The notes below the pieces were generated by a model. That model ran no database searches, was not told where the DNA came from, and saw only the letters and a list, made by a program, of their open reading frames with translations. The translations under genes were made by a program, and so were the position numbers. A DNA stretch of 64,000 bases from a virus. Numbering within the stretch: position 1 is the first letter of the stretch; each line of letters begins with the position of its first letter. The stretch spans positions 1-64,000 of IMG/VR virus record IMGVR_UViG_3300034062_007046; one strand, written 5' to 3'. Of the stretch, positions 33,395 to 54,210 are shown piece by piece.

Positions 33395-33413
33395 TAGCAG
33401 GTAAATCCATAAT

Positions 33414-35375: not shown

Positions 35376-35386
35376 TGTACTTAACT

Positions 35387-35394
35387 ACTAATTA
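35387..35394 (+). promoter_or_regulatory. Candidate late promoter ACTAATTA
   Basis: Intergenic, about 30 nt upstream of the ATG and before the GGGAG RBS; recurring motif. Confidence 0.55.
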
Positions 35395-35424
35395 TAACAA
35401 CTATTACAATTTTGGGAGATAAAA

Positions 35425-36405: not shown

Positions 36406-36420
36406 TTTAGGGGTAATTAA

Positions 36421-37548: not shown

Positions 37549-37549
37549 T

Positions 37550-37780
37550 ATGTCATTTAAAAAATTTGAAAAAAGTGATGTTTTTAAAAATGTTGTAAAA
37601 ACAACTCCTTATTTTGAATTTAAAATTTATGGTGGAAAAGTATATTTAAATAATTCTCTTAGAGGATATACGGATTTAAACACTTTAAAGGAAGCGCCCG
37701 CTATTTCAGCTGGTTGTGATATTCCAAACTCTTTTGATTTCTCTTGTGAAGATAACTCATACAATGTTTCACTTGTTTAA
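37550..37780 (+). CDS. Small structural-region protein
   Basis: Tightly packed ORF; Cys-containing C-terminus (CDIPNSFDFSCEDNSY). Confidence 0.65.
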   Translation: MSFKKFEKSDVFKNVVKTTPYFEFKIYGGKVYLNNSLRGYTDLNTLKEAPAISAGCDIPNSFDFSCEDNSYNVSLV

Positions 37781-37788
37781 CATGAAAA

Positions 37789-38769: not shown

Positions 38770-39842
38770 TGAGCGATACATCTGAAAAAGTAAAAGTATT
38801 AAACCAAAGCACAATTGAAACAATTGATGCAGCTTTTTTAGACTACGTAGAGGGTCTTAATCTATTTTGCACAACTATAAATGGATGGGAAAAAATACCA
38901 GTTATTTGGTCTTCTGCGGAAAGAGCTTTTCAAATAAAAAATAACAGAGAGATCAGAGACAAAAATGGTTCTCTCATTCCACCAATAATTTCTATAGAAA
39001 GAACATCTACTGTCAAAGATCCAAATAAAAAAGGCTCTTTTCAAGCTAATTTGTCGCCAAAAAACGATAGATATGTTTACGCAAAAGAACTAAACCAAGA
39101 TAAGACATCTAATTTTGCCAATGCGGATACTTTAAAAACAAGAGGACAAATAAATTTTGCCACCTCTAAGAAAAATAAAAAAAAGGTATATAGGTATATA
39201 TCCGTTCCTATACCAGTATACATTACTGTTGAATATAAAATTAATATAATAACAAACTATCAAAGTCAAATGAATGAAGTGATTCAGCCGTTTATGTCAA
39301 GAAACGCTCAGAATTATTTTGTTATAAATAAAGACGCGTATAGATATGAATGTTTTATGGATCAAAACTTTCAACAAGATAGTATTGCGAGCCTTGGCGA
39401 AGAAGAAAGAAAGTATAAATCAGTAATTACAGTAAAAGTTCTTGGTTATTTGATCGGAGAAGGAAATAACCAAGAAAAACCGCAAATTATTGAACAAGAA
39501 AATGCTGTTGAATTAAAAATACCAAAAGAAAATTTATCTATAATTCAAGAAGAGCCAAGAAGGCAAAGAGAGGCTCCAAGTTTATTTAGAAGCAACGGAG
39601 TTACACAAACTGCTGCCACTATACCAGTTAAAAAAATATATTTAATAGGAAATGGTATTGATTCAATCTATAAAGTTACTCATGGAATGGGTACAAGAGA
39701 TATTTTTGTGATTGTCAGAGAAAGTGCTTCTCCTTATTCGATTGTAGAAGTTGGTATAGATTATAGTGACTTAAATCATATTGATATCGATATGGGCGAT
39801 ATTATTAGTAGTGATAGCTACACGGTAACAATTATAGGTTAA
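38769..39842 (+). CDS. Tail sheath stabiliser/terminator (T4 gp15-like) with appended C-terminal beta domain
   Basis: IPVIW.S.ER, P.ISIERT, P.YITVEY.I.I.T.Y..QMNE..QPF; extra THGMGTRDIFVIV domain. Confidence 0.65.
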   Translation: MSDTSEKVKVLNQSTIETIDAAFLDYVEGLNLFCTTINGWEKIPVIWSSAERAFQIKNNREIRDKNGSLIPPIISIERTSTVKDPNKKGSFQANLSPKNDRYVYAKELNQDKTSNFANADTLKTRGQINFATSKKNKKKVYRYISVPIPVYITVEYKINIITNYQSQMNEVIQPFMSRNAQNYFVINKDAYRYECFMDQNFQQDSIASLGEEERKYKSVITVKVLGYLIGEGNNQEKPQIIEQENAVELKIPKENLSIIQEEPRRQREAPSLFRSNGVTQTAATIPVKKIYLIGNGIDSIYKVTHGMGTRDIFVIVRESASPYSIVEVGIDYSDLNHIDIDMGDIISSDSYTVTIIG

Positions 39843-39856
39843 AAAAATTGTTTAAA

Positions 39857-39864
39857 ACTATTTA
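39857..39864 (+). promoter_or_regulatory. Candidate late promoter ACTATTTA
   Basis: Intergenic, about 24 nt upstream of the ATG at 39889. Confidence 0.55.
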
Positions 39865-39888
39865 AAAATATAAATTTAGGAAAATATC

Positions 39889-40578
39889 ATGGCAGATCAA
39901 AGCTTAATAATAAAAGATGGAAATGGGTCTTTAAGCGCGCTATCAGTTTTCAGCGGCGCTCTTGGATTAGTGCCAGAACATGCAATCAGTGGAACTGTGA
40001 ATGTTACTGCTTCCCTAACAAACCCCGTTTATACAACTGGAACAGTTGCAGTTTCAAATTACCAGTCTACTTCTTTGTGGGTTACATCGTCATTTGCAAG
40101 CCCAGTATATGTTTCGTCTTCTACTGGAAAAGAGCTTTATGTTACAAATACCTCGACTACACCAATACACGTCACCTCATCAGAAATCAATCCAGTAATT
40201 ACAAAAAATACTATAGCAACTATTCCTGTTAGAAATACATTTTCGTCATTTGCAGGTACAATAAACTGGGCGGGGACTGGTTCATCTAATATTAGCGGTA
40301 CATTTATCTTAGCACAAACTTCCTCTACGAGAAAGGGACTGATGTTCGCTAATAATACAAATAAAGATCTGTATGTAGCACTTGGCGATACAGACTTTGC
40401 TTCAACAAACGGGTTCTTGTTAACAAGTACCGCAGTTGCTCCTTCGTATTATTCATTTATAGTCTATCCGTCTGGTACATACTTTGCAGAACCAACATTT
40501 GTAAATCTTAAGCACAGCGGTTTTTTTGTAAGCTCATCAAATATCGATGTTCAGATTTCATCAGTAACCACAGAGTAA
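39889..40578 (+). CDS. Ser/Thr-rich virion surface protein
   Basis: Repeated V-T-[AS]-S..PVY units and a beta-rich C-domain (RKGL.F.NNT..DLYV.LG). Confidence 0.6.
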   Translation: MADQSLIIKDGNGSLSALSVFSGALGLVPEHAISGTVNVTASLTNPVYTTGTVAVSNYQSTSLWVTSSFASPVYVSSSTGKELYVTNTSTTPIHVTSSEINPVITKNTIATIPVRNTFSSFAGTINWAGTGSSNISGTFILAQTSSTRKGLMFANNTNKDLYVALGDTDFASTNGFLLTSTAVAPSYYSFIVYPSGTYFAEPTFVNLKHSGFFVSSSNIDVQISSVTTE

Positions 40579-40582
40579 AAAA

Positions 40583-41065
40583 ATGTCTATTTCATATCCA
40601 GTTTCATCAGGCGGCGGCGGTACCACAATAGTAAGCGAGAGAGCTCAGTACGCTATTCCTGCAACAATAAATACCACTTTTCCTATCGTTATAAGTGGAT
40701 CAACTTCTTCGGGGCAAATAGCTACACTGTTTATTCCCCCAACCTACCTTTACCAAATGTCTGGCAGCTATTCGCTGGTTGTAGTAGGAGAAATTACTGG
40801 TGCAGCTGGCGTAACTGGAAGTTTGCAAGTGGAAGGTCCAGAAACTTTTACAGCTAAATTGACAGCGTATGATCCGGTTGGTGCTGGTAATTCTGCTATG
40901 GGCGTTAGGCTTTCTGGAAGTACACAAGGGTACGACTTTATCAACTATCCTCTTGATCTTGGACCGGGTAATGATTTTGGTGCTTCGTTGCCAATTAGCT
41001 TTTCTGGCTCGGTTTCCAACTATACAGCGAGCATTTATAGTGTTCACTTAAGCCCAACCCTATAG
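40583..41065 (+). CDS. Ser/Gly-rich virion surface protein
   Basis: Beta-rich; four SGS motifs plus TGS, TAS and TSS. Confidence 0.55.
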   Translation: MSISYPVSSGGGGTTIVSERAQYAIPATINTTFPIVISGSTSSGQIATLFIPPTYLYQMSGSYSLVVVGEITGAAGVTGSLQVEGPETFTAKLTAYDPVGAGNSAMGVRLSGSTQGYDFINYPLDLGPGNDFGASLPISFSGSVSNYTASIYSVHLSPTL

Positions 41066-41182: not shown

Positions 41183-43153
41183 ATGGCTAATCCATTAAAA
41201 ATTTTAACTCACTTATCTGCAAGCGAAGCAGCAGATTTCGCAAAAGCAGTAAAATTCAACGAAGTTGTTACACTTGCTAACAAAAAAATCGTTGGTCTTG
41301 CTGAAGGTACGGCAGCAGGCGATGCAGTTCGCTATGAGCAATTAACCGCAGAAGCATCACTCCGCGTTTCTGGCGATTCTTCACTAACATCACGTCTATC
41401 AGTCGAAGAATCAAACCGCGAAGCAGCAGTTAGCAGCGAAACATCATCACGCATTTCAGGTGATAACTCATTAGGCGCTCGCGTTTCAGCCGAAGAGTCA
41501 ACCCGCGCTTCCGCTGATACATCGTTAACATCACGTATCTCAGCAGAAGAATTGGCACGTGCTTCAGCTGTCACTTCAGCTGCAACTTCAATTGATGCTC
41601 GCGTATCAACAGAAGAATCAGCAAGAGCATCAGCAGATACTTCATTAACAACAAGATTATCAGCTGAAGAATCTGTAAGAGCTTCAGCTGATACAGCAGA
41701 AGCATCAGTACGCGCTTCAGCCGATGCTTCACTAACTGCTCGTCTTTCAGCAGAAGAAAGTGCATCACTATCAGTTGATGTAAGCCTTTCAGGTCGCATC
41801 ACTGATGAAGCATCAATTCGTGCTTCAGCTGATGGTTCATTGGCTCTTGCGTTTGCTTCAGCTGATACTTCACTATCAACTCGTCTTGCAAGTGAAGAAT
41901 CATCCCGCGCTTCAGCAGATACTTCTCTAACATCACGCATTTCAGCAGAAGAATCAGCCCGCGCTTCAGCAATCGTTGCAGCAAATTCTTCACTTGATTC
42001 ACGTATTTCAGCAGAAGAATCAACACGCGCTTCAGCAGATGGTTCATTAGCTGTTGCGTTTGCATCAGCCGATACATCATTAACAACTCGTTTATCAACT
42101 GAAGAATCAGTACGCGGTTCAGCTGTTGTAAGTATTGACGCGGCAATTTCAGTCGAAGGATCAACACGTGCATTAGCAGACTCTTCATTAACAACTCGTC
42201 TATCAACTGAAGAAGTTGCCCGCGCAAGCGCAGATACTTCATTAACAAGCCGTGTATCAACTGAAGAATCAGTACGTGCTTCAGCAGACGCAAGCCTTGT
42301 TGCTGCTCTTTCAGCGGAAGCTTCATCACGCGCAGCGGAAGATCTAAAATTCCTCTATCTTGATGGCACACGCGCAATGCAAGGCGGTCTTAACATGGGT
42401 GGTTACGATATCACCTCTGCTAAGAGCGGTTCATTCAGCGGTGACGTTACCGTTCAAGGTAGCCTCAACGTTAAAGGCGCTCTAACTTACCTTGAAACCA
42501 CAAATACCCAAGTTAAGGACAACCAAATTGAACTTAACTACGCAGCAACACCAGTAAGCAATGCAAATGCTGGTATCGTAATCAAGGGTAGCGAAGCTGG
42601 TAAAGACGTAAGCATGATCGTTGATGCAGACGGCGGTAATTTAGTTGTCAACACAATGGTTTCTGCTTCAGCACTCAAGGCATCAGGCAACGGTGAACTT
42701 GGTGGTGCATTAGTAGTTAAGGGTCAAGCAGCTGTAAGCGCCTCATTAATGATCTCTGGCGCTTCATTTGGTGACGCCGGCGCAGATGCAGCACTTGGCT
42801 ATGCTAACAACATGTACAATGTTGATAGCGCTATCCGCTTCTTGGCTGGTAGAAGCACCGGTATGGCAGACGGCTACACCAGCCTACGCCACGTTGCTGA
42901 TTTTGCACTTGTCGGTGGTACAAAGACATATGCATTACCAGAAACTGCTGCATTTGCATCAGGACAACTCAACAAAATTATGGTTGATGTTCTTGTTGCT
43001 GGCACAACTGGTGGCTGGGTCAACGATCTAATCGCTGTTAAACTCGAAACCGTTGGTAGCTATCTACAAGTCGTAATCGATGCGCCAGCCCACGGTAACG
43101 GTAATGTACGTCTAATCGCCGTTAACGAAGGTATGGGTATCGAAGGGGAATAG
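41183..43153 (+). CDS. Ser/Ala/Thr-rich coiled-coil fibre protein
   Basis: ATG at 41183 after GGGAG RBS (track start GTG 41162); about 18 degenerate repeats; strong codon bias; shared C-terminal domain. Confidence 0.8.
   Translation: MANPLKILTHLSASEAADFAKAVKFNEVVTLANKKIVGLAEGTAAGDAVRYEQLTAEASLRVSGDSSLTSRLSVEESNREAAVSSETSSRISGDNSLGARVSAEESTRASADTSLTSRISAEELARASAVTSAATSIDARVSTEESARASADTSLTTRLSAEESVRASADTAEASVRASADASLTARLSAEESASLSVDVSLSGRITDEASIRASADGSLALAFASADTSLSTRLASEESSRASADTSLTSRISAEESARASAIVAANSSLDSRISAEESTRASADGSLAVAFASADTSLTTRLSTEESVRGSAVVSIDAAISVEGSTRALADSSLTTRLSTEEVARASADTSLTSRVSTEESVRASADASLVAALSAEASSRAAEDLKFLYLDGTRAMQGGLNMGGYDITSAKSGSFSGDVTVQGSLNVKGALTYLETTNTQVKDNQIELNYAATPVSNANAGIVIKGSEAGKDVSMIVDADGGNLVVNTMVSASALKASGNGELGGALVVKGQAAVSASLMISGASFGDAGADAALGYANNMYNVDSAIRFLAGRSTGMADGYTSLRHVADFALVGGTKTYALPETAAFASGQLNKIMVDVLVAGTTGGWVNDLIAVKLETVGSYLQVVIDAPAHGNGNVRLIAVNEGMGIEGE
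41345..42343 (+). repeat. Degenerate coding repeat, about 18 units with consensus SAEES.RASADTSLT.R[LIV] (18 aa; 11-, 22- and 29-aa variants)
   Basis: Visible in protein and DNA (recurring tcagcagaagaatca / gcttcagc.gatac). Confidence 0.9.
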
Positions 43154-43182
43154 TAAAAATTAAAATCAGTTTAGTCTGATTT

Positions 43183-43214
43183 GGGGAGCGGAGAGAAATC
43201 TCCGCTCCTTTTTT
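43183..43214 (+). terminator. Rho-independent terminator
   Basis: GGAGCGGAGA-GAAA-TCTCCGCTCC perfect stem followed by TTTTTT. Confidence 0.92.
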
Positions 43215-43233
43215 ATTTATAAGCTATTTTTAG

Positions 43234-43241
43234 ACTACTTA
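43234..43241 (+). promoter_or_regulatory. Candidate late promoter ACTACTTA
   Basis: Just after the terminator and about 23 nt before the ATG at 43265 (GGAG RBS). Confidence 0.5.
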
Positions 43242-43264
43242 TGTATAGAATATTGGAGTCTAAA

Positions 43265-44395
43265 ATGAATAAAATAAATTTAGGTATTACCGTACTTATA
43301 GATAAGCCAACCGAGTCTTTTTTTACAAATGGCATCAGACAAAACGCAATAATAATGCGTGATCTTTATAAAAAAATAGATTTTGTTGGTGATGTTTATT
43401 ATGTAAACTTTGGAAAACAGAAAGATTACTCGCAGTCTCCTTGGAAAGAATACGAGGAAAACATCATACAATTTGAGGAAATGTTTGATAAAATAAATGT
43501 TTTGGTGGTTTCATGTGTTACCATCAATAAAGATATAGCTGAATTAGCGAAGAAAAAAGGTATAAAGATCGTACACCATATTATGGGTAATGAATATTAC
43601 TCATTTGTTGAAAGCGTATTATTTAAAAAGGAAGAAACGACTGTTTTTTCAAAAGAGCGTCATTATGATGCAGTTTGGATTTCCCCACATCTATACGAAA
43701 CAAATAAAGATATTTTTGAAGTATCCTATGAATGCCCAGCATATGCTGGAGCTTACGTTTGGTCACCGCAGTTTCTTGAACAGCACGTAAATGCTCTTTA
43801 TGAAACTAAAAAAATAGCATCTAAAATTTATAATCCAGCAGGCATAGAACAAAAAAGACTTGGAGTATTTGAGCCAAACTTAAGTTTTATGAAAAATTCT
43901 ATTTTTCCTATATTAATAGGAGAAAAACTGCAATTAAAACACCCAGAACTATTAGATAGTTTAAATTTGTTTGGCTCATCTTCAATAAAAGATAAAAAAC
44001 AATTAATAAATTTTGTAAAAACATTAGAAATTCAAAAAAATAAAAAGATTTTCTTTGAAGATAGGTACCCAATAGCTTGGGCGCTTTTCCAGCACACAGA
44101 CATTTTGTTATCCCATACACATCATTGCGATCTGAATTATGTATATTTTGATGCTGCTTGGTTAGGATTTCCAGTGGTACACAATTCTAAATTTATCAAA
44201 AAACTTGGTTGGTATTATGATGAGTTTGACGCAGATGATGCTGTGAAGCAAATAAAAAAATCAATAAATTATTTCGATAACGCAAACAATAGAGAGAAAT
44301 ATTTAAAAAATTCAAAAGAATTTATTTCTGCCTATTTGCCAACGCAAGATAAAAATGTTGAAGCTTATAAGTTATTATTAGAAAAAATGTTTTAG
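43265..44395 (+). CDS. DUF2827-like protein, putative GT-B glycosyltransferase
   Basis: GIT......S.FTNGIRQN, GNEY, WISPH, YVWSP.F, FEPN.S..K....P and LNY.Y.DAAW.G.P.VHNS; start at 43265 chosen from the RBS. Confidence 0.75.
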   Translation: MNKINLGITVLIDKPTESFFTNGIRQNAIIMRDLYKKIDFVGDVYYVNFGKQKDYSQSPWKEYEENIIQFEEMFDKINVLVVSCVTINKDIAELAKKKGIKIVHHIMGNEYYSFVESVLFKKEETTVFSKERHYDAVWISPHLYETNKDIFEVSYECPAYAGAYVWSPQFLEQHVNALYETKKIASKIYNPAGIEQKRLGVFEPNLSFMKNSIFPILIGEKLQLKHPELLDSLNLFGSSSIKDKKQLINFVKTLEIQKNKKIFFEDRYPIAWALFQHTDILLSHTHHCDLNYVYFDAAWLGFPVVHNSKFIKKLGWYYDEFDADDAVKQIKKSINYFDNANNREKYLKNSKEFISAYLPTQDKNVEAYKLLLEKMF

Positions 44396-44403
44396 GAATT
44401 TAA

Positions 44404-45543
44404 ATGAAAAAAATAAATATTGGTATCACACTTTCAATAGATCCAACTGAATCGCTTTTCACAAACGGTATCAGACAAAATGTTATTATTTTAAGAGAGC
44501 TTTACGAAAGATGCGAAGGCGTTGAGAAAGCATATATTATAAATACTTCTGGAAAAAATATACCAGATGATCCAAATACTCCGCTATATCCTTTTCGTAA
44601 CCTTATAATCGATCTAAAAGATGTAAAAAAATATTGTAATTTTGTTGTTGTAGCTCATGGCTCACTATTGCCAGCAGAATATAAAGAATTACATAATTCT
44701 GGGATAAGGATAGCAAAATTAATTCTTGGTAATTTATTCTCAATGTTTAATGAGCAAATTTTATTCAAAAGCAACGATGAATATTATGGGGTTTTTAATA
44801 GAAATGAAGGGTTTATAAGTAAAACTTGGCTGTCGGCGCATTACTTTAGAGATAGGTATTTTTTTGAAACACTTTATGGATGCGAGGCAAAAATTGCTCC
44901 TTATGTTTGGGATCCGCGCTTTATAGAAAAGAGTAATGAAAATTATAAATCTCTTTATGGAAAAACTTGTGAATACAGCCCAAGTGGAAAACAAGAAAAA
45001 CGTATATTAAATTTTGAGCCAAACCTTAACATGGTTAAGACTTCAACACAATCTGTTGTGGTATTAGAGAGATTTTATCGACAAAATCCACAATATGTTG
45101 GTGATTGTTATTTTTTTAATACCAATATCATAAAACAAAAAAAAGACTTTATAGATTTTGTAAAAAATCTCGATATTTATAAATCTGGTAGGGCTTCTTT
45201 TGAGGGCGGTATTGCAATAGTAAACGCTTTGGGAAAATATGGTGACATTGTAATAGCAAGCCAAAATCAAAACGAGCTAAACTATCTTTATCTTGACGCG
45301 GCTTGGATGGGCTATCCAATTCTTCATAATTCGCCAATGATGAAAGAAATTGGATACTGTTACGAAGGTAACGATGCTCAACAGGCTTCAGAAATCTTGT
45401 TAGATATATGCCAAAATTTTGATAAAAATCATGAACAATACAAACATGAATCAAGACAAAAAGCAAGCAAATATATGATAACAAACGAAGAGCACATAAA
45501 AGAATACACAAAGCTTATACACGAAGTTATGGATAGCAAATGA
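44404..45543 (+). CDS. DUF2827-like protein, paralog of the upstream gene
   Basis: GIT...S.FTNGIRQN, PYVWDP.F, FEPNLN.VK and NELNYLYLDAAWMGYP.LHNS. Confidence 0.75.
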   Translation: MKKINIGITLSIDPTESLFTNGIRQNVIILRELYERCEGVEKAYIINTSGKNIPDDPNTPLYPFRNLIIDLKDVKKYCNFVVVAHGSLLPAEYKELHNSGIRIAKLILGNLFSMFNEQILFKSNDEYYGVFNRNEGFISKTWLSAHYFRDRYFFETLYGCEAKIAPYVWDPRFIEKSNENYKSLYGKTCEYSPSGKQEKRILNFEPNLNMVKTSTQSVVVLERFYRQNPQYVGDCYFFNTNIIKQKKDFIDFVKNLDIYKSGRASFEGGIAIVNALGKYGDIVIASQNQNELNYLYLDAAWMGYPILHNSPMMKEIGYCYEGNDAQQASEILLDICQNFDKNHEQYKHESRQKASKYMITNEEHIKEYTKLIHEVMDSK

Positions 45544-45737
45544 AACGCAAAGTTACCTATTTAGTAAAATATATGGATGAAATAATAAAAGAAGTGCTGA
45601 TGCATACAAGGGATATAAAAACGCAAGGAGAATTATTAAAAAATAGGCAAATACTTGATGAAGCAATAAAAAAATTAGAAAAAAAATACGATAATATCAT
45701 AAAAGACATACAAAACGATATAGATGGCGAAGAATAA
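45540..45737 (+). CDS. Small helical hypothetical protein
   Basis: ATGA overlap; coiled-coil-like composition. Confidence 0.55.
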   Translation: MKRKVTYLVKYMDEIIKEVLMHTRDIKTQGELLKNRQILDEAIKKLEKKYDNIIKDIQNDIDGEE

Positions 45738-45991
45738 TGAAAAATAAATTTAATTTTTTACAATTTACAAATTGGCTTTTTATTTGTAGAGAAAACATAG
45801 AATCAATAAAACAAGATGTATTGCAAGAAAAAATAACAAAACAAGATGCAATAGAAAAATTGCTTGCAGAAAAGAAAAAAATCTCTATTTTGAGAGATGT
45901 TTTAGATAGAAAAGTACGACTATTTGGTATTCAAGCTGGCTTTTTACGATCATTAAAAGATCTTAAAAAAAGATATGGAATAGAAGAGTAA
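45737..45991 (+). CDS. Small helical hypothetical protein
   Basis: TAATG overlap with the previous ORF. Confidence 0.55.
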   Translation: MKNKFNFLQFTNWLFICRENIESIKQDVLQEKITKQDAIEKLLAEKKKISILRDVLDRKVRLFGIQAGFLRSLKDLKKRYGIEE

Positions 45992-45992
45992 G

Positions 45993-46000
45993 ACTAATTA
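45993..46000 (+). promoter_or_regulatory. Candidate late promoter ACTAATTA
   Basis: Intergenic, about 22 nt upstream of the ATG at 46023 (GAGG RBS). Confidence 0.55.
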
Positions 46001-46022
46001 TTCTATATTTGAGGAATAATGA

Positions 46023-48155
46023 ATGTCAGGCAACGGTAATGGCAACGGTAATGGCAACGGTAGAAAACCAGTAAAAGTTCTTACCGACCTTGAAACGCGA
46101 AAGCAAATTTTAAAAACTGATTCCGGCAATAATGTACTTTTTAAAGTTTCTGGTACGCTTGGTAATGGCGCAGTTAGCTCTTCTCTACCAATAACAGGCA
46201 CTCAAGCCTATTTTTCAAATGATGTGACCATTGATGGTGTTCTTAAAGCCAGCGAAATTCAAGTTACAACTTTAGTAAATTCATTAAATTATGAAACTTC
46301 CATTTCTGCGTCTATTAACGCCCTTTTAGATGTTTCCGCTTCATCCGCAGAAGTTGATCAATTTCTTAAATGGAATGGAAGCCAATGGGTTCCCGGCGAT
46401 GTCAGCAATGGATCAATCGGTGCTGCCGAAGATGGAGATTATACCGATGGTTTGTTCACAGATTTCACCGAAGCAACGCCAATTGGTACAGCCGTAGATA
46501 GAATAAATGAAGTTCTAAAAGGTTTAGCCCCCAAAGTAGCACCAGATTTATCAAATTTAGAAAAAACATCTGGTGCTACTGGTACAAATATGCGCCTCGC
46601 GTTTGGTGCTTCTTATTCAGTAGCTGGTTATGAGTCGGTTACGGCATCATTAGGTGCAACATTAACAAATAAAGATTTTACAGAAGCATTTACAGCTGCA
46701 AATGGGGCAGGAGGCTTCCCAGTAAGATTAGGTGCTTATGCCTCACCAGTGGCATTAACCATGTCGCTGAATAACAATGTTTCTGCGGACGCTGGAGCTT
46801 TTACAAACTATCCAGCAAAAGCGTTTAATGTTCCAACTAACGGCGCAGGAGCATATATTTTAGAAGTAAACGGCACTCAAATTACTCCATCTGGTTCTAC
46901 ATCAGACACTAATTCTGCTGTTAGCCAAACATTCTTGCTATCCGCAGCGAATACAGCATCATTTATTGGTTCTGGTCAAGGTTTTGATCTATTTCGGCAC
47001 AGAACCGCTACAGTTGGTATACCAACAAGTTTATGGCGCAATGGTCATAACTACGCAAAAGTTACACATGTTTCTTCGCTTGGAACGCATGTAACAAACT
47101 TTATTGACTGGGTTTATGATCCATCCGCCGCAGCTGGAACAAATAATTATGGCTTTACCTCCCCGACTTCAGCATCTTTCGTCGTAAGCGGAGCAAAGTA
47201 TCTTTCTGGTGTCAAGTACTATACAAGCGTAGCATACAACTTTACTACAAATGTAAGTAACTTCTATAGAAATATTTATCCGGTAGCTGGTGGGTTATCT
47301 TTTAGCGGTTTGACCGCAGGATTGAGCGCTGGAAGCGTTTCTATCCCAACGCCAACAACAAATCTTGATGATATTGCAGTAAGTGTAGGTCATACATTTA
47401 ATGGATCATATAGATTACTCGGAGCATCTCTCGCTTCAACGCTAAATTCAGCAAATGGTCTCGGCAAAACAGGTGCAACAACTTTAACAACAAATACAAT
47501 TCTTTACGATAATGTGAACACTGCTAATACAACAGCAGCTGAATACTTCTGTTTAGAAAATTATCGTGCTGAATCTGGCAGTTATGCAATCCAAGCGGAC
47601 GCATCTAATGCAATAGGAGCCTTCCCAAGCGGATCATCATTAGCTGCTGGCGAATTAGCGGTTTACAACGGCGCAATGCGTTACCCAACAAAAATTTTAA
47701 ATAATGGCGATATAGACGGCTCTGGTGTTGTACATATGATTGCAGGACAACCAGATTATTCTGCTGAAAGTGGCAATAAAACCTATCACCGCGTATTCCG
47801 TAATGGTAGCAGCGCAATTGCAGTATTTACCTTAACAATAAATGGCGGTAGCGGAATCAACGTAACAACCCACGAAGGAACGTTGAATACCAATAATATA
47901 AAAGCTTGGATTAAAATTCCCGGCAAAACAGGATGGCGTGATATAGCAACAGGAACGCCTGCGCCCGGTTATTCCGCCACTGCGGATAATTTAGGAGCTT
48001 TGCAAGGTTCTAAAGTTACAACTTCAACCTCTTCAACCCATACAATTAACTTATTAACTGAAGGTTTAGCTGTTAATGAATATTTTGTATTAAGAATAGA
48101 AGCTTCTGATACTTGGACTAATAATATAAGCTCTATAACCATAACAGGACTCTAA
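46023..48155 (+). CDS. Fibre/virion surface protein (710 aa)
   Basis: N-terminal KPVKVLTDL motif, L.DV...QFLKWNGSQWVP fibre motif, Gly/Ser/Thr-rich beta domains. Confidence 0.7.
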   Translation: MSGNGNGNGNGNGRKPVKVLTDLETRKQILKTDSGNNVLFKVSGTLGNGAVSSSLPITGTQAYFSNDVTIDGVLKASEIQVTTLVNSLNYETSISASINALLDVSASSAEVDQFLKWNGSQWVPGDVSNGSIGAAEDGDYTDGLFTDFTEATPIGTAVDRINEVLKGLAPKVAPDLSNLEKTSGATGTNMRLAFGASYSVAGYESVTASLGATLTNKDFTEAFTAANGAGGFPVRLGAYASPVALTMSLNNNVSADAGAFTNYPAKAFNVPTNGAGAYILEVNGTQITPSGSTSDTNSAVSQTFLLSAANTASFIGSGQGFDLFRHRTATVGIPTSLWRNGHNYAKVTHVSSLGTHVTNFIDWVYDPSAAAGTNNYGFTSPTSASFVVSGAKYLSGVKYYTSVAYNFTTNVSNFYRNIYPVAGGLSFSGLTAGLSAGSVSIPTPTTNLDDIAVSVGHTFNGSYRLLGASLASTLNSANGLGKTGATTLTTNTILYDNVNTANTTAAEYFCLENYRAESGSYAIQADASNAIGAFPSGSSLAAGELAVYNGAMRYPTKILNNGDIDGSGVVHMIAGQPDYSAESGNKTYHRVFRNGSSAIAVFTLTINGGSGINVTTHEGTLNTNNIKAWIKIPGKTGWRDIATGTPAPGYSATADNLGALQGSKVTTSTSSTHTINLLTEGLAVNEYFVLRIEASDTWTNNISSITITGL
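46029..46061 (+). repeat. 12-bp tandem repeat GGCAACGGTAAT x2.75 encoding (GN)5G
   Basis: Direct reading of the sequence. Confidence 0.9.
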
Positions 48156-48158
48156 TAA

Positions 48159-49277
48159 ATGGCTTTAACAGAGAAAAACCAGTTATTAATAGCATTTAAA
48201 AAACTTTATGGTAAGAGCCATACAAGCGCTAAATTTGGTATTTTTAACGAAAGTATAGGATCTTCCGTACAGCTTGGTTCAAGCACTATTTTTGGGAATA
48301 ACATACCGTCAGTCCCAAGTTCCTCATTTTATAGCATAACAGAAGGCACGGTAGAAAAAATACAATTTACTTTAGAGCCAATTGCGCTTTCTACTTATGC
48401 AAGCACATTAGGTTCCATCGCTGGTACTACAATAGACGATGAAGGCAATACGGCAGTAAACGGAGTTCATGCTTATAAATTAGTTCTACCAAGTGATTAT
48501 GTAAGTAATTCGTCTAATGCTAAAAAGGGAACTGGAGCATTTTTAAATTCTGCTGTTCTTTCTGACTCAAATGGTGCTCTGCAATTAGTTCCTCCATCTT
48601 TTGGGGATCTTTATAGCGCACAAATAAGCAGTTCTTCTGGGATTATTGGCGGTCTTGACGACGAGGATTATTATTTAGATTATTATTCTGGTATTTTATT
48701 TATACAGGATATTGGTAGAACACCAACAGCGGTCACTGCGTATGCATACGTAGGTGATTTTGTTAGCGATTTGCTAACAGATATAACCTCTGATTATATT
48801 ACAGAAGTAGTTGCTGGAACAAATTTAACTGGCGGTGGCTCAAGCGGTTCGGTAACAGTAAGTTTAGCTGATAATATTTCATTAACTTCCGTAACGGCTT
48901 CGTTATATGGTACTGCATCCCACGCAATAACAGCTTCATACGCTGAAAGCACCACTTTTGATCCTACACAAATTATTCATGCTTACAAGCGCTTAAGATA
49001 TCAAGAGATTGGGTATTTTGATGCATCTGGTAGTGCATTAATACAGTTGCCGACTGGTGCCTACGGGGGTTCGGCATTTCCAACAGCTTCTTTAGATTAT
49101 GTAAATGTAAGCGTTTTTGTAAAAGATGGCACTTTGTGGACAAATGATATCTTGGCAGTTAGTGTTTATGAGTCATCAAGCTATATTTATGTTTCTCTTG
49201 AAGCGCCAGAATTGACTGATACCGATCAATACAAATTATTAGCCATAAATGAAGATCCAACATATTATACTATTTAA
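48159..49277 (+). CDS. Fibre-associated protein with the shared C-terminal domain
   Basis: ITEVVAGTNLTGGG.SG.VTV fibre repeat; C-terminal Y..LRY...ND...L.AP...Y.L.A.NE domain. Confidence 0.65.
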   Translation: MALTEKNQLLIAFKKLYGKSHTSAKFGIFNESIGSSVQLGSSTIFGNNIPSVPSSSFYSITEGTVEKIQFTLEPIALSTYASTLGSIAGTTIDDEGNTAVNGVHAYKLVLPSDYVSNSSNAKKGTGAFLNSAVLSDSNGALQLVPPSFGDLYSAQISSSSGIIGGLDDEDYYLDYYSGILFIQDIGRTPTAVTAYAYVGDFVSDLLTDITSDYITEVVAGTNLTGGGSSGSVTVSLADNISLTSVTASLYGTASHAITASYAESTTFDPTQIIHAYKRLRYQEIGYFDASGSALIQLPTGAYGGSAFPTASLDYVNVSVFVKDGTLWTNDILAVSVYESSSYIYVSLEAPELTDTDQYKLLAINEDPTYYTI

Positions 49278-49334
49278 TTCTGCATGTGAAATGGTATAAT
49301 ATTTTAACTTACTTTGCAAAATAGGTAGCTCAAA

Positions 49335-49342
49335 ACTATTTA
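49335..49342 (+). promoter_or_regulatory. Candidate late promoter ACTATTTA
   Basis: Intergenic, upstream of the GGAG RBS of 49380; a second copy lies at 49269-49276. Confidence 0.5.
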
Positions 49343-49379
49343 TTTACATATCTACTTTTGCTTGGAGTTTTAGATATTT

Positions 49380-50336
49380 ATGGAAATTAAACCAGTTAGA
49401 GTATTATCGGATTTAGAAGCCACACAGGACGTTGTAGTTAGCGGTTCGCTAATCATAACAACCACCGCTTCTTTCGATACTATACCTGTTGTAACTGGTG
49501 CGAACGGCAGTTATGATGTAGATTATGCTTTACACCAAGTAAACGATTCAGTTTACCAAACAAATGCAAATATAGCAAATGCGATTGCCGGATTTGCGGA
49601 TGAGTACAATAAAAATAGGTACACATTCACTGGTTCGCTTGATGCAAGCGGCTTAAAAGAGATTAATCTAACAACATCTATTATATCTGGTTCTGTTAAC
49701 TTTGCAAGCGGTAATTTATTTGATATAGCAATTGATTTCCTGCTGGATACAAACGGTGATGGAAAATATAGAAACGATTTAACATCATATCAGATATTTG
49801 CCTCTGGTAGTGATTTGCTTATCGCGATTGACGCCCCAGCATCACCTAACTGCAATTACAGATTGTCTGTTCAGAATCAAAGATCGCTGTCGCCTGTATC
49901 TGGCAGCAATGGCGTTCTTATAATTGCAGGTCCGCAGGGACCGCAAGGCACGGCTGGAGTAGCTGGCGCTAACGGTACAAATGGAGCTAACGGTAAAACA
50001 TTTATAACCGTCGCCAGTAATCTTTCAACAAATAATATAATCGATACCATAGCTTCTAATTTTCCTTTAAGCCCATCGCAAGCACCAACTGGTTTTTATT
50101 TAGACGTAACTGGCTTTACGCAAAACACTTCCTATCCTATGGTTGTAAAGCTTTATGATTTAGCGTCGAATACAGTTATTGATTCGGATTCTATTAGCTC
50201 CACAAGTCCTAATACAATAAGATTAAATGGGTCAATACCAAATGTATCTAACAAACAATACGAATTAAGATACTATTCTTCTGGTTCCTCAAGCAACTAT
50301 GTATATTTGCAAACTGCAATAATAGAAATTTTATAA
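49380..50336 (+). CDS. Fibre protein with shared N-peptide, shared domain and short collagen-like segment
   Basis: KPVRVLSDL; eight G-X-Y triplets (GPQGPQGTAGVAGANGTNGANGKT); N-terminal ~165 aa paralogous to 51853. Confidence 0.7.
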   Translation: MEIKPVRVLSDLEATQDVVVSGSLIITTTASFDTIPVVTGANGSYDVDYALHQVNDSVYQTNANIANAIAGFADEYNKNRYTFTGSLDASGLKEINLTTSIISGSVNFASGNLFDIAIDFLLDTNGDGKYRNDLTSYQIFASGSDLLIAIDAPASPNCNYRLSVQNQRSLSPVSGSNGVLIIAGPQGPQGTAGVAGANGTNGANGKTFITVASNLSTNNIIDTIASNFPLSPSQAPTGFYLDVTGFTQNTSYPMVVKLYDLASNTVIDSDSISSTSPNTIRLNGSIPNVSNKQYELRYYSSGSSSNYVYLQTAIIEIL

Positions 50337-50351
50337 TTTTGGAGAAATAAA

Positions 50352-51455
50352 ATGAGTTTAGAATTAAATTGGTCATGCTCTGGTAGCGTTTCTGGCGAGA
50401 TGGTGAACGTCGTGAACCCACGCGCCTCTACCTCTGCTGACGCAGTTAATGGTCCAGCATGGAATTTGTGGTGGATGAAGGAACGTATGAAAGAAGTCGG
50501 TTGGACTGTTGTTAGTTCATCAGATTCACAAAGCACAGGCTCCAGTGATTTGTGGGGTAGCACATTTGATGCTACATTAAGAAGTAGCAAAAATAGCAAA
50601 GTCTTTTATCATGCTACTGGCGCTCCCCATTCATGGATAGTTCTTCAAGCCCCATCTGGTTCTGCTTCGGATTATTATTTTATTATTGATTATACGTCAG
50701 CTGATGTTATTTCTAATAAAGCGCAATTTACGGTCACCAAAGGTCCAATTGGTGGCGGTACAACGTCTACACGACCAACTGGTTCTGCGGATTTCGGCAT
50801 TAACTCAAACGCAAATGCTGGTGCGCCAACACTGATTATTTTTGATAATTATACAAGCACAACAGCCCAACACAGAGTTAATTTTCAATATACAAGCGAT
50901 GGGGCTTTTATGTTTTCTGAAGTACAAGTTGGTAAAGGAAAATTTACAAACTTTTTATCATTCCTGCCATTACAAAATACTCATGCGGCGGATCAATTTA
51001 AGTGGGTGTTAGTAGGATTAGACATTTATGCTGGTGCTGATGGCGGAAGTGCTTTTTACAATTTTGGTATTACTGGTCAGCCACTTTACACAGAAGGGTC
51101 TAACGCTATTTCAGGACGATCACATGATGGCGCAACCGCGCTTAATTTAGCTGGTGCCATTCCAGCCGTAATCCCAGAAGGCGGCTCAATAGGCACTGGT
51201 ATTTTATTTAATAGCGTTTTAACAGCACCAAACGCCTCTGATGCTACATATAGTGATTTTCCAATAACGGTTGTCAACGTCGCAAATGGTCCAGTTGAAT
51301 TAAAAGGCAGACTACCAGACATTACTTGGACAAGCGTTTCCATTCCAAACGGAGCAGTAACGCCTGTTAAATCCGTTGCTGCTGACACTTACGAAAGAAC
51401 AAAGTATTTAATGATGTGGTTGCCTTGGACATCAGTAGACGCTCCAATTCTATAG
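50352..51455 (+). CDS. Virion surface/fibre-tip protein
   Basis: GWTVVSSSD, HSWIVL and ELKGRLPDI.W segments; Gly/Ser/Thr-rich; GGAG RBS. Confidence 0.55.
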   Translation: MSLELNWSCSGSVSGEMVNVVNPRASTSADAVNGPAWNLWWMKERMKEVGWTVVSSSDSQSTGSSDLWGSTFDATLRSSKNSKVFYHATGAPHSWIVLQAPSGSASDYYFIIDYTSADVISNKAQFTVTKGPIGGGTTSTRPTGSADFGINSNANAGAPTLIIFDNYTSTTAQHRVNFQYTSDGAFMFSEVQVGKGKFTNFLSFLPLQNTHAADQFKWVLVGLDIYAGADGGSAFYNFGITGQPLYTEGSNAISGRSHDGATALNLAGAIPAVIPEGGSIGTGILFNSVLTAPNASDATYSDFPITVVNVANGPVELKGRLPDITWTSVSIPNGAVTPVKSVAADTYERTKYLMMWLPWTSVDAPIL

Positions 51456-51463
51456 GATAAAGT

Positions 51464-51841
51464 ATGTCAGCTACAGAAATTACAACATTTAATGATTTAA
51501 GCATTTCTACCAATAATAGAAATTTTATTATTGAATCGCTAAATGATAACTCTGTAGCAACAATAAATTTTTCTAATAAAACATATTCTTTGGAAGAAGA
51601 TAAATTTTTATTAGATAGTAAAGAGTTTGCGAATCATAACTATAGATTAGAAAGCAAATTTTTTGCTACTATGCAATTTAGTGCCCCAGCTGCGAATAAT
51701 CTACGATATAATATGCGTGCAAGAAAAGTTTCTGATAATACTTTTATTTATTGGAGAACAACAGCAGTAGATTCAAGCGGCGCAGAGAGTGGGTTTAATG
51801 TTAATGAAATTTATGATATCTGTGTGTTAGGCTATAACTAA
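51464..51841 (+). CDS. Hypothetical fibre-module protein
   Basis: AGGA RBS; tight packing between fibre genes. Confidence 0.6.
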   Translation: MSATEITTFNDLSISTNNRNFIIESLNDNSVATINFSNKTYSLEEDKFLLDSKEFANHNYRLESKFFATMQFSAPAANNLRYNMRARKVSDNTFIYWRTTAVDSSGAESGFNVNEIYDICVLGYN

Positions 51842-51852
51842 AAGGGAATAAA

Positions 51853-54210
51853 ATGGCAAGAAAAATAAAAATACTAACCGATGTTGACGGAAAGCAAGAT
51901 TTAGCAGTTAGCGGAGCATTAACTGTAAAGGCTGATTCTACTTTCGTTATTCCTTCTATTTCAACATCGTCTGATGGTTTTTATTCCTTAAACAATGCTA
52001 TACACAAGATAGATCAATCCTTACAAGAAGTTAACGCAAGAGTTGTTAGCTCTGTAGGAAACGTCCTTGGGCAATATAACGCAAGCCGTTACGTCTTTAG
52101 CGGCTACTTTAGTGAATCTGGTTCAGCTACTATAAATTTAACAAGAGGTTCACCATCAGGTTCTGTGTATTTTACAGAAAGCGAGATTGGTAATTTATCA
52201 GTAAATATCTTAACCGATTTTGATGGCGATGGTATTTTTACTAATAATCTTGTCCCATTTCAATTACGCCCAGCAAGCGGAGATTTATTTTTAGATATTA
52301 GTGCGCCAAGCGCTCCATATGTAATGTATAAGGCGACTGTTACAAACGATTCAGCGATTGTAGACATCCCAGCTCAAAATGATGTTTATTTAGTTCAAAA
52401 CTCTGGGTCTTCCACCGTTGACGCGCAGACAGTTCTTTTAGATTCGACAAAGCTTTATAATAAAAATATTAGAAATTTTTATGTTTCCCCAACTGGCTCC
52501 GATGATAACGATGGACTTACTTTAACAAGCTCATTTGCCACAATTCAAAAAGCAGTAGACTCTATCCCTACCTATAATAACGCAGCAGCAACAAGAGTGC
52601 AGTATCATACTATTGTAAATATTGCAAGCGGGACGTACAACGAAAAAATAAATATTTTAAATAAAGGATATTCTGGTAATGACAGCAACCTTTTAGTTTT
52701 ATTTAAAGGAGCGACACAAGCAGTTTACGAGAATCTATCGCCTATTTCGCAAACTTCAACAGATGCTGATTCTGGGGATACAAACGGTTTCAGATCTCTT
52801 TTGCTAAATTTTTCAAGCCCACCAGCTAATAATTCACTTAAAGGTTTCTATATCAACAGAAGAACAAATCCTTTTACTTCTGATATATTAATAACTGGTA
52901 ATTCGGGCAGCACAATACATACAAATAATACAACCTACTCGTCTTATTTTGGTTATAGCGACTATTATATTATCAGGAACGTCAGCACAGTAAACGGCTA
53001 CTTTAGATCTGCTGGTAATCAAGGTGTTATAAGTTTTAAGAATATTAATTTAAATGTACCATTAAATGATGGCGGTGGCACTGACACTTACTTCTTTTCT
53101 TCTGTTTATCATCCAGTAGGCGTTGTTGATGAAAACAATTCGGGTCAAATAGCTGGCACTGGTCTACAGGCAAGGTACGGCTCATATTCTAACGATGAGA
53201 TCCGTATATCTTCCTGTAACATAATTAATCTTGTTCAACCAACTGGTAGTTCTGCTGCGAGATTAGTTTTAGGTCCAAAAACATATTTAGCGTATGTTTA
53301 TTTTTCAAGCTTGTATCCGAGTGCTTCTATTTATTCTTCATATAGTCAAGTAGATTCATTTAATGCAGTAGCATGCTATTTTGAAAATATTGGTTTAAAT
53401 TTTACAAGCGTACCTCTTATAGATCTACGTAGCTCTTTTACAAACAATTGTTCCTTGACTTTTACATCTTGCGACAGCGTAACGCTACCAAGAAAAATGA
53501 TAAGCAATAAAGCATCAGGCGATAGAGTTTCACTATATAGTTCAGTGGTTGGGTCGAATCCAAACGATTCAGTTTACTATAAAAGCATTGGTTTCGATGG
53601 CTACAATCAGTCATTTTTAAATTTAGTTTCACCAATGACAGCACATGGACCATTTTTTAGATTTATAAATGCGACAAATAATACCTTCATAGAATTTGGA
53701 GCGGTTAGTTCGACTTCTTCTCTATCTGGCACAAGCAATTCCGATTATCTAATGTTGTTAAATGGTAAATGTAACCTAAATATTAACTCTGTATTAGATT
53801 TAAGAAATGTTTATAGCGCAATTACAACGCCTTTTATTGCTTCTTTTAAAAGCGACATTAGAATATCTTACTATAATCCTTTATTCGCTGCTTCTGGTAG
53901 CGCAAATTACAGATCAAATGGTGATTTTCGAGCAGATGACAAAAATTATTTTTATTCTGAATTGCCTATTATTACTGCTGAAACAACAAAAGTAGATAAT
54001 CGTTTAAATATAGCAAATACTAAAATGGATTATCAATATCCAATTGAAACAAACAAAAATATTACTTTAACTGGGTCTGCACAATTGATAAGCTCTTTGG
54101 TAAAATTAACTCCATATACAACGTTACCCGCTGGTTCGTTAGGGTTAATGGCTGTAAGCGGCACAACGTTGTATTTCCATAATGGTACAAGCTGGACAGC
54201 TATAACATAA
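51853..54210 (+). CDS. Receptor-binding fibre/spike with beta-helix (pectin lyase-like) region
   Basis: KIKILTDV N-peptide, shared domain, then FYVSPTGSDDNDG..FATIQKAVD..VNIASGTYNE beta-helix cap; ends LYFHNGTSW. Confidence 0.72.
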   Translation: MARKIKILTDVDGKQDLAVSGALTVKADSTFVIPSISTSSDGFYSLNNAIHKIDQSLQEVNARVVSSVGNVLGQYNASRYVFSGYFSESGSATINLTRGSPSGSVYFTESEIGNLSVNILTDFDGDGIFTNNLVPFQLRPASGDLFLDISAPSAPYVMYKATVTNDSAIVDIPAQNDVYLVQNSGSSTVDAQTVLLDSTKLYNKNIRNFYVSPTGSDDNDGLTLTSSFATIQKAVDSIPTYNNAAATRVQYHTIVNIASGTYNEKINILNKGYSGNDSNLLVLFKGATQAVYENLSPISQTSTDADSGDTNGFRSLLLNFSSPPANNSLKGFYINRRTNPFTSDILITGNSGSTIHTNNTTYSSYFGYSDYYIIRNVSTVNGYFRSAGNQGVISFKNINLNVPLNDGGGTDTYFFSSVYHPVGVVDENNSGQIAGTGLQARYGSYSNDEIRISSCNIINLVQPTGSSAARLVLGPKTYLAYVYFSSLYPSASIYSSYSQVDSFNAVACYFENIGLNFTSVPLIDLRSSFTNNCSLTFTSCDSVTLPRKMISNKASGDRVSLYSSVVGSNPNDSVYYKSIGFDGYNQSFLNLVSPMTAHGPFFRFINATNNTFIEFGAVSSTSSLSGTSNSDYLMLLNGKCNLNINSVLDLRNVYSAITTPFIASFKSDIRISYYNPLFAASGSANYRSNGDFRADDKNYFYSELPIITAETTKVDNRLNIANTKMDYQYPIETNKNITLTGSAQLISSLVKLTPYTTLPAGSLGLMAVSGTTLYFHNGTSWTAIT

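Follow-up and report, generated by a model that had tools for sequence, protein, structure and literature searches.

A nine-residue N-terminal peptide and a helix-sandwich module recur in the fibre proteins of an uncultured large phage

Introduction

Adenovirus fibre, T4 fibritin (with its foldon) and reovirus sigma1 share a plan in which a conserved N-terminal tail docks, a variable shaft follows and a C-terminal domain trimerises; fibres that attach by the N terminus keep their N-terminal parts conserved. Elsewhere a peptide of one protein binds the sandwich of another, as in the minor pilins CofB and TcpB with the N-terminal peptides of CofJ and TcpF, and in the donor-strand complementation of chaperone-usher systems. 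Among phages, T4 gp9 is described as a trimer whose chains begin in a coiled coil and end in a beta domain, and it is to this beta domain that the N-terminal end of the long tail fibre attaches coaxially (PMC3004832). Branched receptor-binding complexes built through conserved N-terminal parts and gp10-like XD platforms are established in CBA120 (PMC8825819) and proposed for RaK2 (PMC10253068). Here we analyze a fibre gene cluster in the first 64,000 nucleotides (64 kilobases, kb) of IMG/VR record IMGVR_UViG_3300034062_007046, a stretch called the window below, in which four proteins begin with one short peptide and four carry one module, a coiled-coil helix followed by a beta-sandwich. An earlier note on this DNA had proposed that the peptide docks into the module of another subunit, so that fibres could form chains or branches.

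Results

A shared peptide and a shared module in the fibre cluster

The fibre proteins (A, B, C, D and G) and the two shared elements are located as follows; pLDDT is the predicted local distance difference test score of a structural model.

41183..43153, + strand: fibre A, 656 amino acids; peptide MANPLKILTHL, YadA-stalk-like segment, 18-residue repeats, beta-rich segment, C-terminal module
41189..41215, + strand: A peptide NPLKILTHL, 15.6 bits
42803..43132, + strand: A module, residues 541-650, C-terminal, E value 2e-32
46023..48155, + strand: fibre B, 710 amino acids; (GN)5 low-complexity start, B-type peptide, N-module at residues 14-131, 580-residue body without the helix-sandwich module
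46065..46091, + strand: B peptide KPVKVLTDL, 17.1 bits
48159..49277, + strand: fibre segment C, 372 amino acids; start MALTEKNQLL without the peptide, GTAS.A repeats, C-terminal module
48876..49271, + strand: C module, residues 240-371, C-terminal, E value 6e-38
49380..50336, + strand: fibre D, 318 amino acids; peptide, beta-segment, helix 47-78, sandwich 80-166, eight G-X-Y triplets (183-206), beta-rich tip
49389..49415, + strand: D peptide KPVRVLSDL, 12.0 bits
49488..49886, + strand: D module, residues 37-169, N-proximal, modelled with pLDDT 93-98 over the sandwich
51853..54210, + strand: fibre or spike G, 785 amino acids; peptide, module, 600-residue body without a family match
51859..51885, + strand: G peptide RKIKILTDV, 11.2 bits
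51955..52353, + strand: G module, residues 35-167, N-proximal, E value 2e-29

The nonapeptide stands at the starts of A, B, D and G. When all six-frame open reading frames (ORFs) of at least 50 amino acids in the whole 82,845-base record were scanned for the pattern [VIL][KR][VIL]L[TS][DH][LVI], it was found four times, always within 17 residues of the starts of these four proteins and nowhere else; shuffled sequences gave a mean of 0.075 and a maximum of 1, in a test that is post hoc since the pattern was derived from the same four peptides. A profile hidden Markov model (HMM) of the four nonapeptides alone reached at least 4 bits in 46 of 135 module-bearing proteins from elsewhere (described below), every time at or before residue 25, and never in shuffled or reversed copies. 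With a loose pattern the peptide was detected within the first 32 residues of 79 of the 135 proteins, about eleven further near misses were seen by eye, and nine of the 135 lack a starting methionine and are fragments. Three N-terminal types recur: an A-type, MANPLK[IV]LT.L.AS; a B-type, MA.KPVKVLTDL.TKKQI.K.D; and a D/G-type, MSNK[IL][KR]VLTN.

Third codon positions of the four peptides agree in only 3-6 of nine, and a DNA-level element was rejected on this ground. Because the peptides differ at synonymous sites, their conservation acts at the protein level. Nor need the peptide be at a free N terminus, since (Gly-Asn)5 precedes it in B. That extension is encoded by a perfect 12-nucleotide tandem repeat (46029-46062, 2.8 copies) and is also present in the relative P0139; other relatives start MSERKPVKVL. 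We also considered a prohead-protease or capsid-targeting signal (LTDLE resembling L-x-E) and rejected it: in most relatives that position is not Glu, and these are clearly fibre proteins.

The module spans about 100-130 amino acids and is present in four copies, in A, C, D and G. BLASTP within the window connects them (A496-649 with D10-167, E value 3e-8; A with C, 1e-5; C with G, 8e-6; C with D, 2e-4), and D4-260 matches G3-236 at 2e-30. Searching the record with D returned exactly the four module places (1.2e-30, 1.7e-9, 2.9e-4). A relaxed HMM search of the whole record gave no fifth copy (next best E value 0.06), and more copies may lie outside the record, which is 41% complete by CheckV. 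These alignments show the copies to be true paralogues. Between A and D the aligned stretch takes in a beta-segment (VSGSL..T.ASF) and a Y.VD.A helix as well, about 155 amino acids in all; the helix, in the form Y.[VL][DN].A[IL], belongs to the family consensus and is found in A, D and G, not in C. Conserved polar residues of the module consensus are R34, D70, N83-D84, R112 and N117-E118. Identity of the sandwich, or knob, falls to 25-35% between paralogues, and the peptide is nearly invariant. The module is C-terminal in A and C and internal or N-proximal in D and G; of the two elements, B has only the peptide and C only the module.

Much of this had been anticipated in the earlier note. It described the four shared starting peptides, placed the modules in A, C, D and G correctly to within a codon, recognized the preceding helix in three proteins, and had the domain terminal in the coiled-coil protein and in the product of the gene at 48159, and internal in those at 49380 and 51853. 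The domain itself is as described there; its size is not, the shared unit being about 155 rather than about 90 amino acids.

The module family and its pairing with the peptide

A profile of the four copies matched 135 proteins at E values of at most 1e-3 (100 of them at or below 1e-10) in a set of 1.84 billion representative proteins; all are from uncultured phages. Located with the family's own HMM, the module is C-terminal only in 103 of the 135, C-terminal with extra copies in 8, N-proximal only in 18 and internal only in 4, while 2 fall below the length cut. C-terminal here means at most 15 residues from the protein end, a placement found in 111 of 135 proteins when those with extra copies are included. 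Some members have two or three tandem copies, and complete proteins of 171-178 amino acids consist of peptide and module alone.

To follow the two elements through their gene neighbourhoods, we used aligned short B-type proteins to collect 23 related loci from viruses. Together with the window's record these 24 records hold 565 ORFs (ATG start, at least 70 amino acids). The peptide scored at least 8 bits in 55 ORFs, always at or before residue 30, and all but two of these, B and its orthologue in locus L021, have the module as well (53 of 55). Module-bearing ORFs without the peptide number 13, at least one of which (L011 85-1569) is clipped by the locus edge and has the peptide in its full ORF (L031). 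The central gene of each locus was chosen for its module, so the neighbour genes are the independent part of this count, and the loci include near-duplicates (L005/L009 and L018/L019). When IMG/VR was scanned with MANPLK[IV]L only, 33 stretches and 15 confirmed loci were obtained, and the module ends all 13 of the complete ORFs; the other two loci run off their contigs, and 10 of the 15 are on contigs already in the set. Protein searches with B 12-75 and A 1-60 in a 5.8-billion-protein set gave few matches (2, 8 and 5) and say little about peptide-bearing proteins without the module. Searches for co-occurrence in other phages, a check suggested in the earlier note, show the pairing to be near-obligate (53 of 55; 13 of 13), and sequence data support a functional or historical link of peptide with module.

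B-like proteins with two or three tandem modules and a divergent peptide (MAVKPAKAIADLL; KPAKAIADL) are encoded at L016 467-1906, L017 10001-11113 and L025 8589-10028, and always adjoin a regular B-type gene.

The family is absent from current annotation. Pfam gave no family at E values up to 0.1 for A, C, D and G and none for the module in 57 members, no PHROG covers the module, and its profile matched no PDB sequence at E values up to 10. The Peptidase_S74 C-terminal chaperone had no Pfam match in A or C, nor in the 57 members. Neither Megablast of the region nor tblastn of G, C and P0012 found a module-bearing isolate among 50,697 phage records. Relatives were likewise absent from a set of one genome for each of 185,579 bacterial and archaeal species, and from a viral contigs collection searched with D. 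The profile had no match in phages immuto and Mel-JY01, a blank that shows nothing as it stands without a positive control. A literature search, supplements excluded, returned the known branched complexes and nothing on a peptide-knob family. In D-type relatives, Laminin_G_3 (5 of 57 scanned), FG-GAP_2, collagen and sialidase-N domains lie 3′ of the module; because these lectin-like and other domains are there, we place host binding in these proteins downstream of the module.

Descent of the two parts and a fibre divided between two genes

We built a FastTree phylogeny of 130 module copies, of which only the broad pattern counts, as the alignment is short and the support values are local. The tree groups modules by the type of peptide present in cis, with 37 changes; shuffles gave 71.9, and none of 200 was as low. 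N-proximal position requires six changes and is essentially confined to one clade, inside which the minimal proteins P0008 and P0009 nest. Since the module tree tracks the peptide type in cis, the two parts appear to have been inherited together, the exchangeable parts being those that lie between or after them.

The start of B is most similar to proteins of 242-252 amino acids. P0141 (244 amino acids) aligns with B14-131 (75%) and immediately afterwards with C252-372 (95%), and P0138, P0139, P0140, P0026 and P0142 show the same B-then-C matching (75-84% in the B part, 56-76% in the C part). We conclude from these alignments that B and C are a split and expanded form of a single-chain fibre of about 243 amino acids, a form that L021 has too. 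The expansion amounts to about 830 amino acids, of which about 580 follow B's N-module and about 250 precede C's knob; a stop and a restart separate the two genes. The best-conserved stretches between the window and L021 are the C terminus of B (90-92%) and the N terminus of C (97%), which would fit a predicted non-covalent joint between these two ends; C is least conserved in its knob (57-60%). Hence the earlier note was correct that the genes at 46023 and 48159 split peptide and domain between them; the colinear single fibre gives this a simpler meaning than entry of B's peptide into C's knob.

Predicted structure of the module

An AlphaFold2 (AF2) model of D 1-177, computed as a monomer from a 57-row alignment that holds both peptide and module, had a mean pLDDT of 87.7. 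Residues 1-46 are extended (about 75), followed by helix 47-78 and a six-strand sandwich at 80-166 (93-98). DSSP assigned no strand in residues 1-38 and no pairing of the peptide with the sandwich. A model of D from its sequence alone reached a pLDDT of just 37.5 and could not be used. A peptide folded in cis onto the knob of its own chain was considered and is unlikely, with a 32-residue helix intervening in D and a shaft of about 500 amino acids in A. Complex prediction for three copies of C235-372 with three of B1-75 gave scores of 0.27, 0.90 and 0.20; the median is below the 0.32 mark, the runs had no controls, and the result speaks neither for nor against binding.

Foldseek found nothing in the PDB at E values up to 1e-3; reovirus sigma1 is a row in that list. 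BFVD returned only uncharacterized phage proteins (best E value 6.4e-5). When the Foldseek list was rescored, T4 gp9 169-288 (1qex_A) came first (Z 6.8, root-mean-square deviation (rmsd) 3.6 A, 89 aligned, 10% identity); CBA120 TSP4 XD2 (187-250) reached Z 4.2 (rmsd 2.3 A, 59 aligned), and CofB and TcpB Z 4.5-4.7. The best match in a wide VIA search was the C-terminal domain of the cyanophage Pam1 tailspike (7eea; Z 6.7, rmsd 2.4 A, 69 aligned), followed at Z 4.4-6.5 by tailspike and depolymerase C-terminal domains, the Tk-SP jelly roll, collagen-binding domains and the R2 pyocin fibre foot. Lectins and carbohydrate-binding modules are further fold neighbours. Gp9, gp10 and the CBA120 XD or D1 domains were not among the best 50 of the wide search. 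Every fold match here has Z below 8, which may mean merely a common arrangement. The module thus appears from the model to be a generic sandwich, for which gp9-C and the Pam1 tailspike are tied and not decisive. Atlas leads were below the 0.9 mark: 0.85 for the BppL_N cluster (40% of members) and 0.80 for the T4_gp9_10_N cluster.

The individual fibres

We take the ATG at 41183 as the start of A, as its relatives begin MANPLKIL. Its repeat region comprises about 350 amino acids of 18-residue (54-nucleotide) units predicted as a Ser/Ala/Glu-rich coiled coil, and the 18-residue period suggests that this coiled coil is non-heptad. At 41855-42288 the shaft repeats read ASADTSLT.R.S.EES.R. The orthologue in L021 is 68% identical, and A, C and G all differ least from their L021 counterparts at the N terminus. 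G had no PDB sequence match at E values up to 1. Residues 1-204 of C (48159-48770) have weak tblastn matches in uncultured huge phages of 484 kb and 642 kb (LR756508, E value 7e-6; LR756502, 1e-3); sequence comparison suggests that C's joint or segment module may be shared more widely than the knob.

The source phage and its gene order

The window also encodes gp25-like (17768-18148) and gp6-like (18170-19972) baseplate wedge proteins 5′ of the fibre cluster, an endolysin, a T4-type large terminase (TerL, 3′ of the fibres), a primase and a fused SbcD-SbcC. Among isolates, the most similar TerL is that of the 160-kb Flavobacterium phage immuto (Immutovirus), at 44% identity, with the 190-kb Microcystis phage Mel-JY01 at 43%. 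The wedge genes, the T4-type TerL and the 160-190 kb size of its TerL neighbours indicate a large contractile-tailed phage: this is an uncultured large myovirus of roughly 160-200 kb with a T4-type terminase. The fibre cluster lies at the end of the structural module. It has the general features of a tail-fibre or receptor-binding cluster, namely a tail-module position beside baseplate genes and fibrous trimer motifs (collagen-like triplets and tail-fibre PHROGs in D; the YadA-stalk-like segment and 18-residue coiled-coil repeats in A).

The common gene order in related loci is conserved structural genes, A-type fibre, optional D-type fibre, an 84-amino-acid ORF, one or more B-type fibres, then RuvC-like, primase and SbcCD genes. 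Fibre genes number from two (L013, L020, L024) up to five or six (the window, L017) with the flanking order unchanged. Two further features lie within the cluster:

45737..45991, + strand: 84-amino-acid basic helical ORF (MKNKFNFLQFTNW...), directly 5′ of the B-type fibre gene
50352..51841, + strand: two genes between D and G, 367 and 125 amino acids, without family, peptide or module; kept in L021 (11380-12900)

ORFs of 84-108 amino acids starting MK..F.F.Q..NW hold this place, immediately 5′ of the B-type fibre gene, in nine loci (L005, L008, L013, L017, L018, L020, L021, L024 and L026). The 84-amino-acid protein, which has no family assignment, could be a candidate fibre-assembly factor or chaperone, or a late regulator; for the 367- and 125-amino-acid products, a role as tip adhesins, or in the assembly of D or G, is possible. 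Between fibre A and the 84-amino-acid ORF, at 43241-45543, are two tandem DUF2827 genes (Pfam E values 4e-81 and 6e-76). The pair is also present in L021 (3993-6269) and in none of the other eight loci compared, and because only these two have it, it is an accessory insertion inside the fibre cluster; that its products modify fibres is a guess.

Giant structural proteins of 1920 (12003-17765) and 2658 amino acids (21402-29378) flank the wedge genes. They are candidate peripheral baseplate scaffolds that may offer fibre docking sites; the former has no Pfam match. Downstream, a 1043-amino-acid fusion of an SbcD-like phosphoesterase (residues 1-221) with an SbcC/SMC-like ATPase is encoded at 56180-59311, and an equivalent fusion of 1042-1045 amino acids lies 3′ of the fibre cluster in L008, L013, L017, L020 and L021.

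Discussion

We regard the family and its architecture as established, along with the near-obligate pairing, the division of one fibre into B and C, and the fold class; from these we infer the target of the peptide and the role of the knob. We favour descent of these fibres from a minimal trimer of anchor peptide and knob, the peptide serving as virion anchor and the knob fixing or capping the trimer; we give this a probability of roughly 0.45. The ancestral unit would have been a trimer of about 170-residue chains, each starting with the nine-residue peptide ([KRN]-P-[LVI]-K-[VI]-L-T-D-L) and running through a short beta-segment and a coiled-coil helix into a six-strand knob. Insertion between peptide and knob would have produced the A-type (with its coiled-coil shaft) and the B-type, and additions after the knob the D/G clade, with its collagen, lectin-like or spike bodies. 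In this phage one fibre has expanded and split, B keeping the peptide and C the knob. The peptide would dock each trimer to a site on the virion, presumably a baseplate periphery protein or an adaptor; the knob would set the trimer register, stabilize the fibre end and perhaps touch the host; and specificity would come from the inserted or appended parts. Such a history needs nothing new and fits the N-terminal conservation, the module tree and the fold neighbours.

Several points weigh against it. No virion docking site for the peptide was identified, and the structural proteins encoded 5′ of the fibres at 29391-41065 have no family match. Two to six fibre types for one anchor would need equal sites or would compete, which is unexplained given the fixed upstream gene order. 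A knob that only trimerises would leave the peptide-and-knob-only proteins and the tandem arrays of two or three knobs unexplained. Both ends are kept across 25-35% identity and diverse inserts, which would fit cooperation of the ends at least as well. Finally, in the B/C-like relatives the knob is more variable (56-95%) than the N-module (75-84%).

The chaining proposed in the earlier note is a serious but somewhat less probable explanation. The N-terminal peptides of one trimer would dock onto the knob trimer of another fibre; C-terminal knobs would join fibres end to end, N-proximal knobs would act as T-junctions with the tip branching off, and multi-knob proteins would be hubs. One fibre alone would need a baseplate site, and fibre number could change without baseplate change, which accommodates the presence of two to five or six fibre genes within the same flanking order. 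Peptide and module are almost never apart (53 of 55; 13 of 13), as docking partners might be, but descent from a minimal ancestor explains the pairing equally well. The window has one socket-only protein (C) and one plug-only protein (B); B and C are, however, one colinear fibre, so that their adjacency is no sign of B's peptide in C's knob. Proteins with two or three tandem modules and the divergent peptide KPAKAIADL look like hubs, and minimal peptide-plus-module proteins exist; with the varying fibre number, these are the three points for which chaining would account better than a shared anchor does. Among the tied best fold matches is T4 gp9 169-288 (Z 6.8), the long-tail-fibre attachment domain according to a review of the T4 tail (PMC3004832), and the weaker ones include TSP4 XD2 (Z 4.2) and CofB and TcpB, minor pilins solved with their partners' N-terminal peptides; yet no fold match attains Z 8, and the AF2 monomer of D 1-177 has neither a strand in residues 1-38 nor pairing with the sandwich. 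R34, D70, N83-D84, R112 and N117-E118 of the module could make complementary contacts with the peptide's K, K and D, but a near-invariant peptide would then face knobs that differ down to 25-35% identity between paralogues. The lectin-like, collagen and FG-GAP tips, too, sit on D-type proteins past their own module and not on separate caps. On these data we regard docking of the peptide into the module as less likely than not.

We consider it considerably less probable still that the sandwich is chiefly the host-binding (glycan) tip, with the peptide as virion anchor and the paralogues providing several specificities. The module does lie at the distal C terminus in most members, and minimal proteins (161-178 amino acids) have the size and layout of small receptor-binding proteins. 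In close relatives the knob is the more variable, mosaic end (56-95% against 75-84%), and it is the least conserved part of C (57-60%); its fold neighbours include the R2 pyocin foot, tailspike C-terminal domains, lectins and carbohydrate-binding modules, and there is the weak Atlas lead to the BppL_N cluster (0.85, below the 0.9 mark). Against this, the D/G clade has better host-binding candidates 3′ of the module (lectin-like, collagen or spike parts), B+C keeps its knob despite the 830 amino acids inserted upstream, and the motif set is strongly conserved in all paralogues, which is unusual for a specificity determinant. Bundling of fibres through homotypic contacts between module trimers, with the peptide anchoring only some of them, is very improbable: it would use a module present on nearly every fibre and has a precedent in domain-mediated tailspike assembly (TSP2 XD2 binding TSP4 in CBA120; PMC8825819), but it gives no reason for every fibre to keep the peptide too.

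Whichever explanation holds, the module is an unannotated domain family of at least 135 protein clusters in uncultured large myoviruses of aquatic type. Together with the nine-residue tag it marks fibres reliably, and so provides an easy way to locate receptor-binding genes, and to set their limits, in such metagenomic phages. It is also a clear case of fibre diversification: the two ends stay conserved, and variable stretches are put in between, added on or, as in B and C, split off. If the peptide does dock in the knob, this would be a second, independent way to build branched or chained multi-receptor fibres, one in which receptor-binding fibres could be gained and lost (two to six were seen) without touching the baseplate, and it would supply a compact pair of parts for engineering modular phage fibres.

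Unlike adenovirus fibre, fibritin and sigma1, each the single fibre of its virus, two to six paralogues here share both ends, some have tandem knobs, and one clade has its knob adjacent to the anchor. The likeness to CofB and TcpB is the common sandwich only (Z 4.5-4.7). In contrast to chaperone-usher subunits, the module is modelled as complete, with six strands (pLDDT 93-98) without the peptide and no open groove, although a model of this kind cannot exclude edge strand addition. To lactococcal-phage BppL there is the Atlas lead of 0.85, below the mark, and no Pfam match. T4 gp9, the module's tied best fold match, also has a coiled coil followed by a beta domain; gp9, however, is a dedicated baseplate protein and not part of a fibre, Pfam gave no gp9/10 match, and Z is below 8. 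With gp9 at Z 6.8 and the Pam1 tailspike at 6.7, homology to gp9 is not established by the model.

The closest parallels are the Ackermannviridae (CBA120 TSP1-4), the G7C-like phages and Alcyoneusvirus (RaK2/phiK64-1), where fibre or spike paralogues are likewise clustered, with variable enzymatic or lectin bodies downstream (PMC8825819, PMC10253068). Conserved N-terminal parts serve assembly in these phages, and small beta-sandwich or jelly-roll domains act as docking platforms in some spikes. Sequence searches gave no match between the module and gp9 or gp10 (Pfam; HMMER may miss remote kinship), and the structural match to XD2 is weak (Z 4.2). The XD platforms are found in one or two organizer proteins, whereas here nearly every fibre has peptide and module, and the module is mostly far C-terminal. 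We think it unlikely, though worth stating, that each fibre carries a universal plug and a gp9-like socket in a self-propagating arrangement, a parallel to the gp10-like XD platforms without detectable sequence kinship. If docking is not true, these proteins are an ordinary though unannotated modular fibre family; if it is, the system would work like the CBA120 and RaK2 complexes, with the new rule that both parts are on every fibre.

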